A DNA stretch of 8,684 bases from a virus. Taxonomy: Duplodnaviria > Heunggongvirae > Uroviricota > Caudoviricetes. The position numbers and the translations under genes are program-made. Positions 1,108 to 8,684 of the stretch are shown here, in pieces. The stretch lies in the IMG/VR virus record IMGVR_UViG_2909246061_000003, positions 1 to 8,684 of that record; one strand, given 5' to 3'. The notes below the pieces were generated by a model, which did no database searches, was not told the DNA's origin, and saw nothing but the letters and a program-made list of their open reading frames with translations. The first letter of the stretch is position 1. The number at the start of each line of letters is the position of its first letter.

Positions 1108-1524
1108 TCACCCATCTTGCTGCGGTGCTACTATTGAAAAGTGCTCACACCCTTTAGCCCAAATAGTTTTGATAGTTGTCCAACTGACTGGAACCTTGAT
1201 TTCGATTCTCCCGCTACAGTCACAAGTTTCGCAATCATCATCACCAAAGCATTCCGGGCAGCTTATAAACGTAGTTTCTGAAAATTCACCGGATAGCACA
1301 CCCTTAGCGCCGTTCTCGGCTGTTAGTCTCTTCGGCACCATGACCCAACCATCCGGAATTACCGGAGAGTTGCCGGGTTCTTTAATGTGCAAGCGAGGCT
1401 CACCATCTTTTGGCTCAGGCCACTGGCGCTCCATGTTGATCTTCAATTTATCTTCCATAGCAGCGGTAATTTCAGCATCGCTGATGCCAGCACGGCGCTG
1501 TGCATCCCACAACAGGAAATGCAT
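1108..1524 (-). CDS. Hypothetical Cys-rich protein, 138 aa, possibly the 3' remnant of a longer gene
   Basis: Minus-strand ORF with protein-like composition, whereas the overlapping plus ORF 1169..1558 is Ser/Leu-rich and starts on TTG. C-terminal CPEC-x6-CETCDC cluster suggests metal binding. No SD before the ATG at 1524. The frame is open upstream only to a stop at 1557-1555, right at the junction where lambda-like sequence begins. Confidence 0.4.
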   Translation of the reverse strand: MHFLLWDAQRRAGISDAEITAAMEDKLKINMERQWPEPKDGEPRLHIKEPGNSPVIPDGWVMVPKRLTAENGAKGVLSGEFSETTFISCPECFGDDDCETCDCSGRIEIKVPVSWTTIKTIWAKGCEHFSIVAPQQDG

Positions 1525-1566
1525 ACAGTACGGAACTAAACGCGGAAAAGCCGCTTAAGACATTCC

Positions 1567-1598
1567 CGCTCTTACACATCCCAGCCCTGAAAAAGGGC
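1567..1598 (+). promoter_or_regulatory. nutR-like N-utilisation site: boxA CGCTCTTAC (1567-1575) and boxB GCCCTGAAAAAGGGC (1584-1598)
   Basis: Seen directly. Matches lambda nutR boxA/boxB as I recall them, with about one mismatch in the spacer. The following leader down to the cII ATG also looks lambda-like. Confidence 0.8.
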
Positions 1599-1677
1599 AT
1601 CAAATTAAACCACACCTATGGTGTATGCATTTATTTGCATACATTCAATCAATTGTTATCTAAGGAAATACTTACAT

Positions 1678-1956
1678 ATGCAACTTACAAGTACTCGCAA
1701 GAAAGCGAATGCAATTACAAGCAACATCCTGAATCGAATTGCTGTACGTGGTCAGCGAAAGGTTGCCGACGCGTTAGGGGTTAATGAATCGCAAATTTCG
1801 CGATGGAAAGACAGCTTCATCCCCAAAATGGGAATGCTTCTGGCTGTTCTTGAATGGGGTGTTGAAGACGAGGAGTTGGCGGAACTGGCTAAGCAAGTAG
1901 CCAGAATGCTGACAAAAGAAAAAGCCCCGAAGAACGGCGAATTCTTCGAGGCCTGA
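1678..1956 (+). CDS. cII: Transcriptional activator CII homologue, 92 aa
   Basis: The stretch SQISRWK...IPK..MLLAVLEWGV.D...A.LA.QVA..LT..K.P is collinear with lambda CII. ATG at 1678 is preceded by AAGGAAA. The ORF-track start at 1618 is an upstream non-ATG extension and is not used. The N-terminal 25 residues differ from lambda while the leader matches, indicating a mosaic. Confidence 0.85.
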   Translation: MQLTSTRKKANAITSNILNRIAVRGQRKVADALGVNESQISRWKDSFIPKMGMLLAVLEWGVEDEELAELAKQVARMLTKEKAPKNGEFFEA

Positions 1957-1990
1957 TGTAGAAAGACTGGATCAATCCACAGGAGTAATT

Positions 1991-2152
1991 ATGACAAAAC
2001 GTCGTAAGAAATACCAGGAAAAAGAAGAGATTCGACACCCTGATTCACCTGAGGGATTAGTGGTAGCCGCAGCAAATAACAGGGCGTTCGCAGAACGCCT
2101 TGTTGGTGTTTACAGACTAGCCAAAGCAGGAGTGAAACATGGGCGTCGTTAA
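1991..2152 (+). CDS. Small basic ORF, 53 aa, using a lambda-O-like RBS and start context
   Basis: AGGAG at 1981-1985, then ATG at 1991. Product MTKRRKKYQEKEEIRHPDSPEGLVVAAANNRAFAERLVGVYRLAKAGVKHGRR. Overlaps the O-like start by 14 nt. Could be a real small gene or a by-product of a recombination junction. Confidence 0.3.
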   Translation: MTKRRKKYQEKEEIRHPDSPEGLVVAAANNRAFAERLVGVYRLAKAGVKHGRR

Positions 2153-2936
2153 GTTAGCTGATTACAGGCCTCAACTGGAGGTCGTGGAGCATCGCGTGGC
2201 AGATACCGAAGATGGTTTCATGCGCATTGCTAACGAGATTACCGACAGTCTGCTGATGGCTGATTTAACCGTCCGGCAGTTGAAGGTGATGCTCGCTATC
2301 ATGCGCAAGACATACGGATTCAATAAGCCGATGGATCGACTCACAAACACGCAGATAGCAGCCATGACAGGTATTCATCACACTCATGTTTGCGCTGCCA
2401 AGCGCCAGCTTATCGAGCGTAAATTCCTCATTGCTGATGGCGTGAAAATCGGAGTGAACAAGGTGGTTTCTCAGTGGATTAGCCAGGACAGCTTAACATT
2501 AGCTAAAACAGCTAATAAAACATTAGCCAAGTCGGCTAATGGGTATAAGCCAAGTCAGCTAAACACAAAAGACAATATACAAAAGACAATAAATACAAAT
2601 ACCCCCTTACCCCCTAACGGGGGCGGCGATGGGCAGGTTAAACCTGAACGTCGCAAGGCAGAACGAATCGACTACGAATCCTTCCTGAACGCCTACAACA
2701 CCGAAGTCGGTGACAGACTGCCACACGCTGTTGCGGTCAACGAGAAACGCAAACGCCGCCTGAAGAAAATCATCCCGCAACTGAAAACGCCAAACGTGGA
2801 CGGTTTCAGAGCGTATGTCAGGGCGTTTGTGCATCAGGCCAAGCCGTTTTACTTCGGAGACAACGACACGGGCTGGACGGCCGATTTTGATTACCTGCTG
2901 AGGGAAGACTCGTTAACGGGAGTTCGGGAAGCGTAG
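2139..2936 (+). CDS. Replication initiator, lambda O-like N-terminal domain, 265 aa
   Basis: AGGAG at 2128-2132, ATG at 2139, in-frame stop immediately upstream. N-terminal half is collinear with lambda O (RVAD.EDG...L...L..ADLT.RQ.KV.LAI.RKTYG.NKPMDR.T..Q). C-terminal half is not recognisably lambda O. Internal iteron-like repeats are listed separately. Confidence 0.8.
   Translation: MGVVKLADYRPQLEVVEHRVADTEDGFMRIANEITDSLLMADLTVRQLKVMLAIMRKTYGFNKPMDRLTNTQIAAMTGIHHTHVCAAKRQLIERKFLIADGVKIGVNKVVSQWISQDSLTLAKTANKTLAKSANGYKPSQLNTKDNIQKTINTNTPLPPNGGGDGQVKPERRKAERIDYESFLNAYNTEVGDRLPHAVAVNEKRKRRLKKIIPQLKTPNVDGFRAYVRAFVHQAKPFYFGDNDTGWTADFDYLLREDSLTGVREA
2477..2603 (+). repeat. Origin-like array inside the O-like gene: four iteron-like repeats followed by an AT-rich tract
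   Basis: Repeats of about 21-24 bp, each with internal dyad ATTAGC...GCTAAT: 2477-2497, 2497-2520, 2521-2544, 2545-2568. Then an A/T-rich tract to about 2603 (AAAAGACAATATACAAAAGACAATAAATACAAATAC). Same architecture as ori-lambda inside O. Confidence 0.5.
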
Positions 2937-2962
2937 CTAAATTTCATTCGCCAAAAAGCCCG

Positions 2963-3541
2963 ATGATGAGCGACTCACCACGGGCTACGGCTTCTGACTC
3001 TCTTTCCGGTACTGATGTGATGGCTGCTATGGGGATGGCGCAATCACAAGCCGGATTCGGTATGGCTGCATTCTGTGGTAAGCACGAACTCAGCCAGAAC
3101 GACAAACAAAAGGCTATCAACTATCTGATGCAATTTGCACACAAGGTATCGGGGAAATACCGTGGTGTGGCAAAGATCGAAGGAAATACTAAGGCAAAGG
3201 TACTGCAAGTGCTCGCAACATTCGCTTATGCGGATTATTGCCGTAGTGCCGCGACGCCGGGGGCAAGATGCAGAGATTGCCACGGTACAGGCCGTGTGGT
3301 TGATATAGCAAAAACAGAGCAGTGGGGGAGAGTTGTTGAGAAAGAGTGCGGAAGATGCAAAGGTGTCGGCTATTCAAGGATGCCAGCAAGCGCCGCATAT
3401 CGCGCTGTAACGATGCTAATTCCAAACCTCACCCAACCCACCTGGTCACGCACTGTTAAGCCGCTGTATGACGCTCTGGTGGTGCAATGCCACAAAGAAG
3501 AGTCAATCGCAGACAACATTTTGAACGCGGTCACACGTTAG
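2963..3541 (+). CDS. Q: Late antiterminator Q, lambda-type, read from the first in-frame ATG (192 aa); native start codon apparently lost
   Basis: Product has the Zn-binding CRDCHGTG...CGRCKGVG module and is collinear with lambda Q as I recall it. The frame is open upstream to 2891 and encodes ...VAKFHSPKSP before the Met-Met at 2963, matching lambda Q residues about 6-15, but no ATG/GTG/TTG or SD is present there. Only 26 bp separate it from the O-like stop. Confidence 0.75.
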   Translation: MMSDSPRATASDSLSGTDVMAAMGMAQSQAGFGMAAFCGKHELSQNDKQKAINYLMQFAHKVSGKYRGVAKIEGNTKAKVLQVLATFAYADYCRSAATPGARCRDCHGTGRVVDIAKTEQWGRVVEKECGRCKGVGYSRMPASAAYRAVTMLIPNLTQPTWSRTVKPLYDALVVQCHKEESIADNILNAVTR

Positions 3542-3583
3542 CAGCATGATTGCCACGGATGGCAACATATTAACGGCATAATA

Positions 3584-3612
3584 TTGACTTTTTGAATAAA
3601 GTTGGGTAAATT
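3584..3612 (+). promoter_or_regulatory. pR'-like late promoter (-35 TTGACT 3584-3589, 17-bp spacer, -10 TAAATT 3607-3612) with adjacent qut-like region
   Basis: Hexamers and spacing seen directly. The surrounding sequence closely resembles the lambda pR' region from memory, up to about 3640, where similarity ends. Confidence 0.6.
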
Positions 3613-3646
3613 TGACATCAACGATGGATAAATGCACTCGTTAAAT

Positions 3647-3685
3647 AAAGCCCTGAGTTAATAGCTCTGGGCTTTTTGCGTTTTA
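3647..3685 (+). terminator. Intrinsic terminator closing a short leader transcript from the pR'-like promoter
   Basis: Stem 3650-3657 GCCCTGAG pairs with 3665-3672 CTCTGGGC (one T-T mismatch), loop TTAATA, then TTTTTGCGTTTT. Confidence 0.5.
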
Positions 3686-3958
3686 AGCACGGCCTTTCTG
3701 AAAGCACATCAAACCAAATACCAGACAGACAATACCCTCACCTTATAGGGACACTTGCTTCAACAGGAGGGACGGTTAGGACCGCCATCCTATATGGGAC
3801 GACCGCCAATAGAACCACGGCCACGGTAATAGAACTCTTCAGAGATGGCACAGTCGCTGCCGGGCATACTTTTACGCTGAGAGATATTTCTTTTGGAGAC
3901 AGCAGGGCTCTAGGGGCTGATTTTGGAGGCTCCTTCGGGAATCTGTATAAGTTCTAAT

Positions 3959-3976
3959 CGGCCGCATCAGCGGCCG
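3959..3976. terminator. All-GC hairpin just past the gtrC stop, a possible operon-end or bidirectional terminator
   Basis: CGGCCGC (3959-3965), loop ATCA, GCGGCCG (3970-3976). A U-rich tract follows on the plus side only (TATCTCTTT). On the minus strand it lies 8 nt after the gtrC stop without a clean T-run. Confidence 0.35.
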
Positions 3977-3983
3977 TATCTCT

Positions 3984-5585
3984 TTACAGATAAGCGACGA
4001 AATAGCCGTCAATTTTCTTTATTTTAAGTTTGTCGCCATAGATGGATAGGGGCTTCTTGAGCCATGTATCGTCTGTGGCGACATATATCTCATTATTCCT
4101 TAGCGTACCCTTAGCCTTAATTTCGGCTATATATCTTTTGTTATTATCTATCGCTGCTTTGTCTGCTCTAGCAAAATACCCAAAATTAAGTTTCATTTTT
4201 TCTGAAGAAGCAAATTCAGCAAATGGGAGCCAATGTCTTAAGCTGAACTCATCGTAATCAGTGGTTATGATAGTGTCCTTCCCTTTGGAGATGACTTCCC
4301 ACTCTTTACTCAACATTTGAGAGCTGTATGGCTTACCAGTATATATCTCTCGAACGGCTTTGAAAAAGTTGCTTTCATCCGCCACTGATATTAATAGAAT
4401 AGGGAGCAAGACATAAGCAGAACTTTTCGAGGTTTTTGCTAAGTATGCCAAAACAATCAACATCAAGATCATCGTCACCGGCCAGAAGAACCGACCAGAA
4501 GAGCGAAAAACGCCACCAACCTTCATGAGAAAGTCATTCATTGGAATTTCAATGAGATTAAATCCATAAAAGTTAATTCGATAAGTTATAGAAACGGCAG
4601 CCAGAACTAAACAGAAGTACAATACAGGAGATTTTATAATTCTCCTGAAATCTATGGACTTTCTTAAAGAGGAGTCTATCAGCATAAACAAAAATAGCGT
4701 GATGATGCCTAATCCTAGATAATTTATACCCTCAAAGTTAGCCTGTTGACTCCCATGACTCAAGATAAGATGTGAGTATCTCTGGTCTCCTGGGTTGAAC
4801 CAGCCGGCAAGATCCATGTTAAGGAATCCGAATCCAGGGTATGGGTCAGAGCCTTTAATAACAAAGTATCCGGTAGCATACATTGCGAGAAATATTAACA
4901 CAGAGTAACACGCGAAAAAGAATGCCGATCTTTTTAAAGATAAACGGTTTGTGTTCAGTTTGTTTAAAATGTCAAATGCAAAAATTAAATACACCATTAT
5001 CAGCAAATATGCATGAATGGTGACTGAGAGAACTAAAATAGCAGCCCATCTTTTAAAGCAAAAAGACCTATTGATATAAAGGTAAAATCCAAAAAGAATT
5101 AGCCACTGAGCGCCTAATGCAAAGTGACCACCGGCACGATTTAAGAATATTGGTGCAATGCAGAAGAAGCATGAACCTATTGCAGAGAATATCTCATCCT
5201 TTGTTAACTTACGAAGAACCAAATACGCAGAAAACGTCATAAGCACAAAGCAAAGATACATCCAAAGCCCGTGATATTGAAATCTGGCGGGGAGAAAGTC
5301 GCTAAAAGGCTTGAATATGAAGGCCATAATTGGGATTGAGTCGGTGTAAACGATAGACCCACCTACACCCATCCCATAGTTATAATTTAGGCCAAGGGGC
5401 CACTGCAACAACGGAGTATTTCGGAAGAAATTCCATCCTGACCAGCTTTGACCAGGATCACCTATCATAAGCCATCCAACTCTTTTGAAGTCCAGCACAT
5501 TCACACCAACATACATAGCAAACATTGATGTCGTGAATATAAACATAAATAAGGACGCTAAAATCCTTTTTTGTGCCTTAGTCAT
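3984..5585 (-). CDS. Serotype-specific O-antigen glucosyltransferase, GtrC-type polytopic membrane protein, 533 aa
   Basis: Third gene of a gtrA-gtrB-gtr(type) operon. The ATG at 5585 overlaps the gtrB stop by 8 nt (ATGACTAA). N-terminal two-thirds has many hydrophobic segments; C-terminal hydrophilic domain of about 130 aa. Markedly AT-rich codon usage compared with neighbours. No close relative recognised from memory. Confidence 0.7.
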
Positions 5586-6501
5586 TGTGTTTATTCCTTA
5601 AGATGTAACGAGGCCTAGCCTTGACTTCAATATATATTCTTCCGATATATTCACCAAGAACGCCAATGCCGATAAGTTGAATCCCGCCCAAGAACAGGAT
5701 TGAAACAAGGAGTGAAGGATATCCTCTCACGGCATTTCCAAATGCAATAGTATCGATGATCATCCAGGCTCCGTAGATAAATGCAAGCCCAGCGACTAGT
5801 AATCCAATATAAGTCCACATACGTAGAGGGAATGTAGAAAAGCTAGTAATCCCTTCTAGAGCTAAATTCCAAAGCTTCCAGCCATTAAACTTTGTGCAAC
5901 CAGCGACTCGCTCAGCTCTGGCGTATTCTACTACATCTGTTTTCCCGCCAACCCAAGACAAAACGCCCTTCATGAACAAGTTTCTTTCTGGCATTAGTTT
6001 GATATTTTCTACCACTTCTCGTGACATTAAACGGAAGTCACCGACGTTCTCTTCAATTTTGGGATTGCTGATTTTATTGTGTAGCTTATAGAACCACTCA
6101 GCTGATTTTCGCTTTAAACGACCGTCAGTAGACCTGTCTGTACGTTTGGCCAGAACCATATCCGCCCCAGCCTGCCACTTCTCAATTAGGTGGGGGATTA
6201 CTTCAATTGGGTCCTGCAGATCTACATCAATCGGAATGACCGCGTCGCCTGTAGCTTGGTCAAGGCCAGCAAACAAAGCCGGTTCCTTTCCGAAGTTACG
6301 CGTGAAGGAGAGAGGAACTACGAGTGGGTCAGCAATGGCAAGCGCGTTAATAATTGATTCTGTAGCGTCTTTGCTACCGTCGTTAATGAAGACTATTTCG
6401 ACTTCATGCTGCTGAAGCCCTTCAAATTCCCGCACGGTTTTATAGAAGATTGGAATTGCTTCCTCTTCATTAAACACAGGAACGACCAGAGAAATTTTCA
6501 T
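5578..6501 (-). CDS. gtrB: Bactoprenol glucosyltransferase GtrB (GT2 family), 307 aa
   Basis: Near-collinear with Shigella/Salmonella phage GtrB from memory ([23 protein letters not shown]...FINDGSKD...DVDLQDP...). ATG at 6501 overlaps the gtrA stop (ATGA). Confidence 0.9.
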
Positions 6502-6860
6502 TTCACATCCCTAAAGACAATGAACTTTGAATAAATAAACCCGCACACCAGACTGATGGCGGAGAACAGAATTAAGGTGATGATTGGTGCCAGACCAGAT
6601 TTATCCGCCGCCCAACCCACAGCTGCGCTAAGCGTCCCCATAAAGCCGACGTAAAGCATGTATCGCATGGTTGTTGTGGATGACTTAAACGTGAATCTGG
6701 CATTTGCGAAGAAGCTAAATGACACAGCCACAACGAACCCGGCAAAGTTGCCAAGGGCCTGTCCTGTATGGAATGCATAGATGCAAATTGCGAACACTAC
6801 CCAGTGAATGAGCGTGTTAATGACACCTATCGATGTGTACTTGGCGAATAACTTTAACAT
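6498..6860 (-). CDS. gtrA: Bactoprenol-linked glucose translocase (flippase) GtrA, 120 aa
   Basis: From the internal ATG at 6860 the product [23 protein letters not shown]... matches GtrA at its usual 120-aa length. The ORF-track start at 6923 is a GTG extension and is not used. Confidence 0.85.
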
Positions 6861-6936
6861 TATAGAAATCAGTGAATTCGGAAAGGTCTGAAGTGTAGCA
6901 CCACAAACGCTATTGATCGACACCGCCGATCAGTAC

Positions 6937-6950
6937 TACTGTATTAATAT
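6937..6950. promoter_or_regulatory. Left half of an interrupted LexA (SOS) box: TACTGT plus the ATTAATAT centre
   Basis: Joining 6937-6950 to 8275-8280 (removing the IS and one copy of the duplication) gives TACTGTATTAATATACAGTA, i.e. CTGT-N8-ACAG with an AT-rich centre, close to the TACTG(TA)5CAGTA consensus. Confidence 0.6.
6943..6950. repeat. Target-site duplication ATTAATAT, left copy
   Basis: Identical 8-mer directly abuts both IS termini (6943-6950 and 8267-8274). Confidence 0.75.
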
Positions 6951-8266
6951 GGGTCTTCCCTTGTTGTGGTGGCTGAAGGCATGATAATGGTGTATTTAAT
7001 CGCCAGAGGTCACCGCCATGGACGAAAAGTCCCTCTACGCTCATATTCTCAACCTGTCCGATCCGTGGCAGGTAAAGTCCCTTTCTCTCGATGAAAATGC
7101 CGGTTCTGTTACTGTCACTATTGAGATCGCTGAAAACACCCGGCTAGCCTGTCCGGCCTGCGGTAAATCCTGTTCTGTTCACGATCACCGTCATCGTAAA
7201 TGGCGCCATCTTGATACCTGCCAGTTCACCACTATTGTTGAAGCCGATGTTCCACGAATTATGTGTCCGGAGCATGGCTGTCAGACGTTGCCTGTTCCGT
7301 GGGCTGGCCCCGGAAGCCGGTATACGTTGCTGTTCGAATTGTTCGTTCTCTCATGGCTGAAAATCAGCACCGTTGATGCTGTCAGGAAGCAACTTAAGCT
7401 CAGCTGGAATGCGGTTGACGGCATTATGACCCGGGCAGTTAAGCGAGGTCTTGCCCGGATAAAAAAGCCATTATCCGCCCGTCATATGAATGTGGATGAG
7501 GTCGCCTTTAAAAAAGGACATCGTTACATAACGGTGATCTCCGATCGCGATGGTCGGGCGCTGGCCTTAACGGATGATCGCGGCACAGAGAGTCTTGCCG
7601 GCTATCTTCGCACACTCACTGATGGGCAGTTGCTGGCTATCAAAACGCTCTCAATGGACATGAACGCGGGCTATATAAGAGCAGCGCGCATCCACTTACC
7701 CAGCGCGGTTGAGAAAATCGCCTTTGACCGCTTCCATGTGGCGAAGCAACTGGGCGAGGTAGTTGATAAAACCCGTCAGAATGAACATCCGCACCTCCCT
7801 GTTGAAAGCCGACGCCAGGCAAAAGGAACCCGCTTCCTGTGGCAGTACAGTGATAAGTGGATGACTGAATCCCGGCAGGAAAAGCTGATGTGGCTGCGTG
7901 CACAGATGAAGCTGACGAGCCAGTGCTGGGCGCTGAAAGAGCTGGCAAAGGATATCTGGAACAGGCCATGGAGCGAGGAAAGGCGGAGTGACTGGCAGAG
8001 ATGGCTGGCGCTGGCGGCTAACAGTGACGTTCCCATGATGAAAAATGCTGCGAAAACGATAGGAAAAAGGCTGTACGGGATCCTGAATGCGATGCGACAC
8101 AGTGTCTCAAACGGAAATGCGGAGGCACTTAACAGCAAGATAAGGTTGCTGAGAATAAAAGCCAGGGGATACCGAAACCGGGAGCGCTTTAAACTGGGAG
8201 TGATGTTCCACTACGGTAAGCTGAATATGGAGTTCTGAGCCTTCCCACCATGATCGGGGAAGACCC
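6951..8266 (+). mobile_element. ISL3-family insertion sequence, about 1.3 kb, with imperfect terminal inverted repeats
   Basis: Left end GGGTCTTCCC...GGTGG..GAAGGC (from 6951) mirrors the reverse complement of the right end (...GCCTTCCCACC...GGGGAAGACCC ending at 8266). Contains a single transposase ORF and is flanked by an 8-bp direct repeat. Confidence 0.75.
7018..8238 (+). CDS. ISL3-family transposase, 406 aa
   Basis: ATG at 7018. N-terminal Cys/His zinc-ribbon (CPACG...C..H.H) followed by a long catalytic region, typical of ISL3-type transposases from memory. The three antisense ORFs within it are taken as artefacts. Confidence 0.85.
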   Translation: MDEKSLYAHILNLSDPWQVKSLSLDENAGSVTVTIEIAENTRLACPACGKSCSVHDHRHRKWRHLDTCQFTTIVEADVPRIMCPEHGCQTLPVPWAGPGSRYTLLFELFVLSWLKISTVDAVRKQLKLSWNAVDGIMTRAVKRGLARIKKPLSARHMNVDEVAFKKGHRYITVISDRDGRALALTDDRGTESLAGYLRTLTDGQLLAIKTLSMDMNAGYIRAARIHLPSAVEKIAFDRFHVAKQLGEVVDKTRQNEHPHLPVESRRQAKGTRFLWQYSDKWMTESRQEKLMWLRAQMKLTSQCWALKELAKDIWNRPWSEERRSDWQRWLALAANSDVPMMKNAAKTIGKRLYGILNAMRHSVSNGNAEALNSKIRLLRIKARGYRNRERFKLGVMFHYGKLNMEF

Positions 8267-8274
8267 ATTAATAT
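8267..8274. repeat. Target-site duplication ATTAATAT, right copy
   Basis: See left copy. Confidence 0.75.
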
Positions 8275-8280
8275 ACAGTA
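8267..8280. promoter_or_regulatory. Right half of the interrupted LexA box: ATTAATAT centre plus ACAGTA
   Basis: See left half. Sits about 18 nt upstream of the RBS/ATG of the UmuD'-like gene; TAATAT within it could serve as a -10. Confidence 0.6.
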
Positions 8281-8297
8281 ACTATCGGAGGTGAGTT

Positions 8298-8684
8298 ATG
8301 GGATTCCCGAGTCCGGCTCAAGACTATGTTGAAGAGCGCGTATTGCTCGACAAGCGCATCATAAGCAGACCAGCGGCCACGTATTTCATGAGAGCGGGTG
8401 CAACGCATCACCGCGAAGGCATCCTGAATGGTGCTCTTCTGGTAGTGGATGCATCGCTATCACCATGTGACGGCTCGTTGCTGGTTTGCAGAATGGAAGG
8501 TGAGCTGAGGATTAAGCGATATCGCAAATCACCAAAGCCTCACCTGGAGGATTTGCAGACGGGAAGGCGTGAGGAGATACCGGCACACGATGACGGCACG
8601 AGTCCGGATGCGATATTTGGTGTGATCACCTACATCATAAACGATGCACGCTCTGGCGAGTTTGATGATTGTCTGATTATGTGA
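8298..8684 (+). CDS. UmuD'-like protein (peptidase S24 fold, natively lacking the N-terminal arm; phage P1 HumD-like), 128 aa
   Basis: GGAGGTGA RBS, ATG at 8298, in-frame stop at 8292-8294. Product begins MGFPSPAQDY, which corresponds to the GFPSPA segment immediately after the RecA-mediated cleavage site of UmuD/MucA. The rest is collinear with UmuD/MucA from memory, including the conserved Lys (RIKRY), but the GDSM Ser motif is replaced by GATHH. TGA ends exactly at the window edge. Confidence 0.75.
   Translation: MGFPSPAQDYVEERVLLDKRIISRPAATYFMRAGATHHREGILNGALLVVDASLSPCDGSLLVCRMEGELRIKRYRKSPKPHLEDLQTGRREEIPAHDDGTSPDAIFGVITYIINDARSGEFDDCLIM

Follow-up and report, generated by a model that had tools for sequence, protein, structure and literature searches.

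Two GATC sites upstream of a prophage gtrA gene as the probable promoter-proximal remnant of a Dam/OxyR switch truncated before the arrival of an ISKox3-like element

The window analysed here is the whole stretch of 8,684 nucleotides of a tailed-phage (Caudoviricetes) record, and its minus strand carries an operon in the order gtrA-gtrB-gtrC, as in the module of Broadbent et al. (2010). The first gene, gtrA (6498-6860, minus strand, with its ATG at 6860), encodes a protein of 120 amino acids and was assigned by Pfam (PF04138, GtrA_DPMS_TM, E = 1.7e-14) and by the RefSeq annotation of an identical allele. The second, gtrB (5578-6501, minus strand), encodes a yfdH-like family 2 glycosyltransferase (Pfam Glycos_transf_2, RefSeq), and the gene in the gtrC position (3984-5585, minus strand) a DUF6311 membrane protein (Pfam, RefSeq). 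Divergent from gtrA lies humD (8298-8684, plus strand), whose product of 128 amino acids is a umuD'-like S24 peptidase (Pfam Peptidase_S24) and scores 207 bits with the NCBIfam HumD equivalog NF051876, the cut-off being 120. No RNA family was returned by an Rfam scan of the whole window. A Q-like antiterminator gene is followed within approximately 440 bp by the end of gtrC (window 2963-3984), and the same layout is found in E. coli PSS-10 (L136 5676-6697), with 100% identity across window 1524-4100. As the Q-like gene adjoins the end of gtrC, the window was assigned to a prophage remnant that appears to be without late genes; this remnant adjoins dacD/sbmC. In E. coli strain 1506 (L001 1306-3585), the same gtr operon is preceded by a tailspike-like glycosyl hydrolase gene.

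The space between gtrA and humD is occupied by an ISKox3-like element of the ISL3 family (6951-8266, plus strand, 1316 bp), the transposase gene of which (7018-8238) was recognised by the ISL3 models of both Pfam and NCBIfam. All the features of an ISL3 element are present, namely a DDE transposase, inverted terminal repeats (imperfect, GGGTCTTCCC...), an AT-rich 8-bp target duplication (ATTAATAT, at 6943-6950 and 8267-8274), and a matching empty site. The gap between gtrA and the element thus measures exactly 90 bp (6861-6950), the final 8 bp of which are the left copy of the duplication. When 6400-7400 was compared by megablast with the complete E. coli genomes, three chromosomes (1506, PSS-10, and TUM12357) were found to be 100% identical over 6400-6950 and to diverge thereafter, i.e. 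to be free of the element, and none of the genomes searched carried the gtrA-IS junction of the window. Annotated ISKox3 copies matched the left-hand 0.48 kb searched (6921-7400), from about 6921 on, at 97.7-98.8% identity. Over that same stretch, the best chromosomal copy was that of E. coli MY203L1 (98.8%) and the closest plasmid copies (97.7%) were located on 46-kb E. coli plasmids; ISKox3 has been tied to blaNDM-5 plasmids in the literature.

Removal of the element together with one copy of the duplication reconstitutes, base for base, the 113-bp gtrA-humD intergenic region of strain 1506. This IS-free region contains the same two GATC sites as the window and no others, and no extra GATC was found in the first 89 bases of humD in that allele, so the insertion did not remove a second pair. 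The suggestion of the preliminary description that the module might have been cut by the insertion sequence is therefore contradicted by the IS-free E. coli alleles; what the element did cut is a LexA operator, to which we return below.

The two GATCs themselves lie at 6915-6918 (proximal) and 6928-6931 (distal), and both these coordinates and the length of about 90 bp previously given for the gap are exact. Over its full length the window is poor in this tetranucleotide (22 sites where shuffling predicts 36.2, each of 200 shuffles having 22 or more), and at the window's own density the probability of meeting two or more in a given 90 bp is approximately 0.022. The only other tight pair in the window, at 7536 and 7543 (7536-7546), is situated inside the transposase gene. 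A stronger argument than density that the pair did not arise by chance is its homology with the gtr control region of phage P22, in which transcription was mapped to start 25 nt upstream of the gtrA ATG and GATC-1 to GATC-4 lie at -110, -97, -46, and -33, with GATC-1/-2 in OxyR(A), GATC-3/-4 in OxyR(C), and OxyR(B) between them (PMC2909390). The comparison with characterised gtr regulatory regions that had been proposed as a check was carried out on P22 (L003), which served as the positive control, the same script returning the published GATCs at -110, -97, -46, and -33. From -50 to +25 the window aligns with the P22 promoter without a gap at 62 of 76 positions (82%), the -10 hexamer TACACT and the core of the leader (5' UTR) being identical; from -115 to -51 the identity drops to 18 of 65, a random level, and the homology ends at about -50.

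Counted from the inferred transcription start, with the P22 positions taken from PMC2909390, the proximal GATC falls within the -35 hexamer with its gtrA-strand G at -33 (6918), and the distal GATC falls at -46 (6931). The spacing of the pair (13 nt, start to start) and its distance to gtrA both match GATC-3/GATC-4. Since the ungapped alignment places the two sites at -33 and -46, the proximal GATC is taken as the orthologue of GATC-4 and the distal one as that of GATC-3; judged from the sequence comparison, the pair is the homologue of the two sites in OxyR(C) and not a chance occurrence. The four-site arrangement of two pairs, at -110/-97 and -46/-33, is found neither in the window nor in the IS-free allele; both hold the -46/-33 sites only, as the earlier remark that a single pair is visible correctly had it.

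By colinearity with P22, the gtr promoter comprises a -35 hexamer TCGATC (6915-6920, minus strand) positioned 17 nt upstream of the -10 hexamer TACACT (6892-6897, minus strand), and a transcription start inferred at 6885 (minus strand), 25 nt upstream of the gtrA ATG, which was transferred through the ungapped alignment from the start mapped in P22 (PMC2909390). The window therefore has, by homology, the sigma-70 promoter with GATC-4 in its -35 that characterises the P22 module. Scans of the intergenic region for consensus sigma-70 promoters and for terminators returned nothing in either the IS-free or the actual sequence, and hence the promoter assignment rests on homology with the mapped P22 promoter. 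The lack of a consensus-grade sigma-70 match is expected for so weak a promoter, though it is not positive evidence.

Half-sites for OxyR were scored against the consensus ATAGnTnnnAnCTAT, bearing in mind that consensus counting is a crude predictor and that OxyR sites are degenerate. With the same script, the P22 half-sites A, B, and C scored 8, 10, and 8 of 10, respectively, with 17-nt spacers. The two GATCs of the window are part of an ATCG-N7-CGAT dyad within an OxyR(C)-like half-site, ATCGGCGGTGTCGAT (6916-6930, minus strand), which matches the consensus at 6 of 10 positions and is without T6 and A10; about 2.3% of the 15-mers in the window score at least 6/10. The earlier statement that clear OxyR half-sites could not be identified was accordingly nearly right, save that the pair does sit in this 6/10 match. 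At the positions of P22 OxyR(B) and OxyR(A), the window scores only 3/10 and 2/10. No partner 15-mer of at least 6/10 was found at a 7-nt or 17-nt spacing, except for a 6/10 match at -78 within the end of the insertion sequence (spacer 18, pair sum with C 12/20), and the 7-nt spacing of the oxidised form yielded no 15-mer of at least 6/10 on either side of C. In the actual sequence, we observe no A or B half-site and no GATC-1/-2 within 200 bp upstream of gtrA. On consensus scanning, then, the window holds no predicted OxyR tetramer site. Three half-sites of 8-10/10 separated by 17-nt spacers are absent from the window and from the IS-free allele alike. The latter has an A position of 0-3/10 and a B-like match of 8/10 at a 16-nt spacer. 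This OxyR(B)-like 15-mer, ATAGTTACTGTATAT (8271-8285, minus strand, 8/10), is one base out of the P22 OxyR(B) register; it lies at -76 in the IS-free allele, 16 nt from C, and 1.3 kb from C in the window. Half of its eight matches belong to the LexA box, and its ATAG is not constant, differing in 8 of 24 unique relatives.

What adjoins the promoter in the IS-free allele is TACTGTATTAATATACAGTA (L001 6537-6556), a perfect palindrome of the CTGT-N8-ACAG type located 17 bp upstream of the humD ATG, which is a LexA SOS box agreeing with the consensus, TACTGTATATATATACAGTA, at 18 of 20 positions. Within 12.5 kb of strain 1506, CTGT-N8-ACAG occurs twice against 0.18 expected, here and just upstream of sbmC, itself an SOS gene. 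The IS-free allele thus has a LexA operator beside a HumD equivalog, whereas in the window the box is split into a left remnant, TACTGTATTAATAT (6937-6950, of which 6943-6950 are the left duplication copy), and a right remnant, ATTAATATACAGTA (8267-8280, of which 8267-8274 are the right duplication copy), with no intact operator left. The insertion point, at -66, is the AT-rich centre of the box. The element destroys the SOS operator and cuts humD off from its probable promoter, which is now probably directed into the element, toward the transposase gene; the gtr core promoter (-45 to +1) is spared. An independent ISKox3 insertion at the homologous LexA-box centre was found in a related prophage remnant of E. 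coli MY203L1 (L002, NZ_CP115186; 2500-2540 and 3835-3940), in the opposite orientation and with the target duplication ATGCATAT; both GATCs are present at that locus, and gtrA is truncated after about four codons. The MY203L1 case suggests that the AT-rich LexA palindrome is a hot-spot for ISKox3 insertion.

The two GATCs differ in how widely they are kept among relatives. The proximal site, as TCGATCAA at the -35, is retained in all loci examined. The distal site is retained in an Enterobacter phage, E. coli PI6, Citrobacter freundii, Candidatus Erwinia dacicola, and one misbinned contig, and is lost from E. coli XJ34, E. coli A30, Shigella phage SfI, and yfdG of CPS-53. The misbinned contig (L014, URFI01000227.1, 3 kb) is labelled uncultured Prevotella sp. 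and combines an enterobacterial-type gtr promoter, a LexA box, and both GATCs; its label is probably a binning or contamination artefact. In XJ34 (L006 380-470), an inverted copy of the humD 5' UTR stands in place of the distal GATC and gives a palindrome of about 40 bp (CCTCCGATAGTT.CTGTATATTAATACAG.AACTATCGGAGG) centred on the LexA box, which looks as if recombination had crossed the operator. No Pfam family was matched by the divergent ORF (79 aa) in loci L009 and L010.

An exact-pattern scan of species-representative genomes gave three loci, too few for a conservation test, and for this reason a looser pattern (LexA box-N20-GATCAA-N15-TAnACTTC) was applied to viral contigs, of which at least 120 matched (L016-L135). 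The 121 matches analysed comprise viral contigs and the three genome loci. They fall into a class 1 with an unrelated spacer, TATCGTCAAATATGAGGGTC, and without the distal GATC (93/121), and a class 2 beside humD with a P22-like spacer and the distal GATC (28/121). In L016 (1289-2945), the only class-1 locus inspected, the divergent genes resemble by eye an umuD/umuC (Y-family polymerase) operon. The LexA box is thus part of an adjacent module of SOS genes, one often placed beside gtr, and the distal GATC is the mark of a minority haplotype only. The constancy of the proximal GATC in the loci examined and the dispensability of the distal one fit a role in the -35 for the former and no essential role for the latter. 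Within class 2, all but one of the 24 unique sequences (23 of 24) retain the distal GATC, a conservation that could reflect some further function. No claim of selection is made for it, given that the neighbouring columns, -42 to -37, are about as conserved among these 24 unique class-2 relatives.

Taken together, the two GATCs are probably the promoter-proximal remnant of a Dam/OxyR switch, left in an ancestrally truncated and non-variable, constitutive promoter. The description of the region as a possibly truncated Dam/OxyR module hence stands insofar as the P22 alignment reveals a homologous but incomplete module, and falls insofar as the insertion sequence was considered as a possible cause, given the IS-free alleles. 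In this lineage, a recombination near -50 would have joined the gtr promoter to a divergent humD gene under LexA control, and OxyR(B), OxyR(A), and GATC-1/-2 were already missing from the IS-free progenitor. OxyR, which binds as a dimer of dimers, requires two half-sites, and its stable binding is not expected on a C half-site that is both alone and degenerate (6/10); Dam should then methylate both GATCs in every cell, and with full methylation we would infer uniform transcription from the intrinsic promoter without ON/OFF switching. This prediction draws on two regions that do not phase-vary, the P22 deletion to -45 and the S. Choleraesuis SCB67_I region. The P22 construct spanning -45 to +34, which contains the promoter and GATC-4, was uniformly Lac+ at 349 Miller units with its GATC methylated, and loss of dam reduced the activity of the P22 core promoter (PMC2909390), for which reason the promoter may here too gain a little in strength when the -33 GATC is methylated. 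The ISKox3-like element subsequently entered the LexA box at its centre (-66), leaving the gtr core promoter intact. At 1.3 kb from C in the window, ATAGTTACTGTATAT cannot cooperate with it, and the insertion may have completed the inactivation by separating any residual OxyR site.

Several other readings should be given due consideration. That the pair is a chance co-occurrence sharing no ancestry with the P22 module is hardly credible: a probability of about 0.02 for two such 4-mers within 90 bp is all that speaks for it, and it is refuted by the ungapped P22 alignment, with 82% identity across the pair and the same spacing and distance to gtrA, while conservation of the pair in the Enterobacter phage, Citrobacter, and Erwinia loci also argues against it. 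That the locus is a still-working switch of the P22 type is very improbable. It does have the homologues of GATC-3/-4 and of the core promoter, but GATC-1/-2 and any A or B half-site within 200 bp are missing and the DNA from -66 on is that of the insertion sequence, and in P22 switching requires a 115-bp region that includes OxyR(A), the deletion of which abolishes it (PMC2909390); this reading was therefore rejected. A different proposal is that the pair mainly serves the divergent SOS promoter, with TTGATC (6913-6918, plus strand), a candidate deduced from the sequence that overlaps the gtr -35, acting as the -35 of humD, so that two -35 elements overlap on the palindrome TTGATCGA; competition between the promoters would couple gtr to humD, LexA would be bound at a distance of 20 nt, and Dam methylation would tune both genes. 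In at least 120 viral contigs the LexA box does lie 20 nt from the proximal GATC despite different intervening sequences, the divergent genes are umuD/umuC-like or humD, and the plus strand can be parsed as TTGATC-18-TACTGT. The constancy of the distance is, however, partly built in, because the search pattern fixed it; moreover, no promoter rose above the scan threshold, the distal GATC is unneeded in 93 of 121 gtr loci with a LexA box, and among the papers listed for gtrA with LexA, no bacterial study links the two and none describes the juxtaposition of gtr with SOS genes. We regard such a primary role in the SOS promoter as improbable.

The remaining alternative concerns the IS-free progenitor, which might have contained a weak but real OxyR tetramer site composed of the B-like 15-mer at -76 (B') and C at -45. 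OxyR would then have repressed gtr in competition with Dam, giving either a single-site switch of the agn43 type or a locked-OFF state, and the insertion would have severed B' from C and freed the promoter, in which case 'truncated by the IS' would be functionally right after all. In its favour, the IS-free ATAGTTACTGTATAT scores 8/10 one base off the P22 OxyR(B) position; in a background of 21,207 positions, a pair sum of 14/20 with spacers of 16-18 nt is attained no more than twice, and one of these two positions should be the site itself (strain 1506 being part of the background); and among the viral contigs a B-like motif (7-8/10) accompanies the P22-like C in 22 of 24 unique class-2 sequences and is missing (mostly 3-5/10) from the class-1 promoters, which lack the distal GATC. 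Much of this agreement has, however, another source: six matches of C are inherent in the GATC dyad and four matches of B' are supplied by the LexA box, so that only ATAG is left unexplained, and this is the part that varies among relatives. The spacer is one nucleotide short (16 nt against 17), C is without two consensus bases, and the co-occurrence of B' with C is explicable by linkage because B' is located in the humD 5' UTR. LexA would also compete with OxyR for the same DNA, and the P22 construct retaining only B and C (to -95) was uniformly repressed by OxyR at 9 Miller units without phase variation (PMC2909390). We therefore consider a functional B'C site unlikely. A combination of these ideas, whereby IS-free prophages wire O-antigen glucosylation to both the SOS response and Dam/OxyR through one 113-bp divergent region (comprising the LexA operator, a weak OxyR B'C site, two GATCs, and back-to-back gtr and humD -35 elements sharing TTGATCGA) and repeated insertion of ISKox3 into the centre of the operator rewires both genes, is offered as a speculation that is, on balance, quite unlikely.

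If the preferred reading of a truncated, constitutive promoter holds, phase-variable modification of the O-antigen cannot be predicted merely from two GATCs ahead of gtrA. The window carries only the promoter-proximal third of the switch, and its operon should be scored as constitutive, a distinction that matters for predicting O-antigen heterogeneity, the masking of phage receptors, and serotyping behaviour. A gtr operon should be called phase-variable only where all four GATCs and three OxyR half-sites are present. The cause of the truncation is likewise to be corrected, from the insertion sequence to an older recombination with an SOS-regulated humD/umuDC module.

Among the known Dam/OxyR-controlled genes, agn43 (flu) of E. 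coli has three GATCs in a full OxyR tetramer site downstream of the transcription start, and is the only known architecture that would allow a remnant with one site to go on switching; its GATCs lie within one promoter-near OxyR site, whereas the window has one half-site only. The nearest well-studied relative of the window is the module of P22, LT2_I (S. Typhimurium), and PT4_II (S. Enteritidis) described by Broadbent et al. (2010), with which it shares the -10, the GATC in the -35, the 25-nt leader, the gtrABC genes downstream, and the GATC pair, which at -46/-33 forms part of an ATCG-N7-CGAT dyad like that of OxyR(C). It differs in being without OxyR(A) with GATC-1/-2 and without the 10/10 OxyR(B), in the lower score of C (6/10 against 8/10 in P22), and in the DNA upstream, which is a LexA operator with divergent humD in the window and the attP/int side in P22. 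In a 2026 study, one substitution, C-34A, was enough to turn the switch into constitutive expression (PMC13505456). Promoters of the window's family, with TCGATCAA at the -35, are present in Shigella flexneri phages SfI, SfII, and SfV and in yfdG of CPS-53 in E. coli K-12, which have the proximal GATC only, whereas the window keeps the distal one too; there is no evidence of phase variation of Shigella gtr, according to Davies et al. (2013, PMC3688519). The same authors described S. Paratyphi C RKS4594_I, which lacks GATC-1/-2, and S. Choleraesuis SCB67_I, in which nothing but the -10 and the GATC-4-containing -35 remains and which does not phase-vary (PMC3688519). Compared by published description, these two resemble the window in that the promoter-proximal part has been kept and the distal part lost, and the phenotype expected of the window is likewise non-phase-variable. 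Truncated gtr regulatory regions are thus already catalogued, and the window adds one more, differing from the Salmonella variants in that it belongs to a prophage of E. coli or another enterobacterium and in that its upstream part has been replaced by an SOS-regulated divergent promoter.
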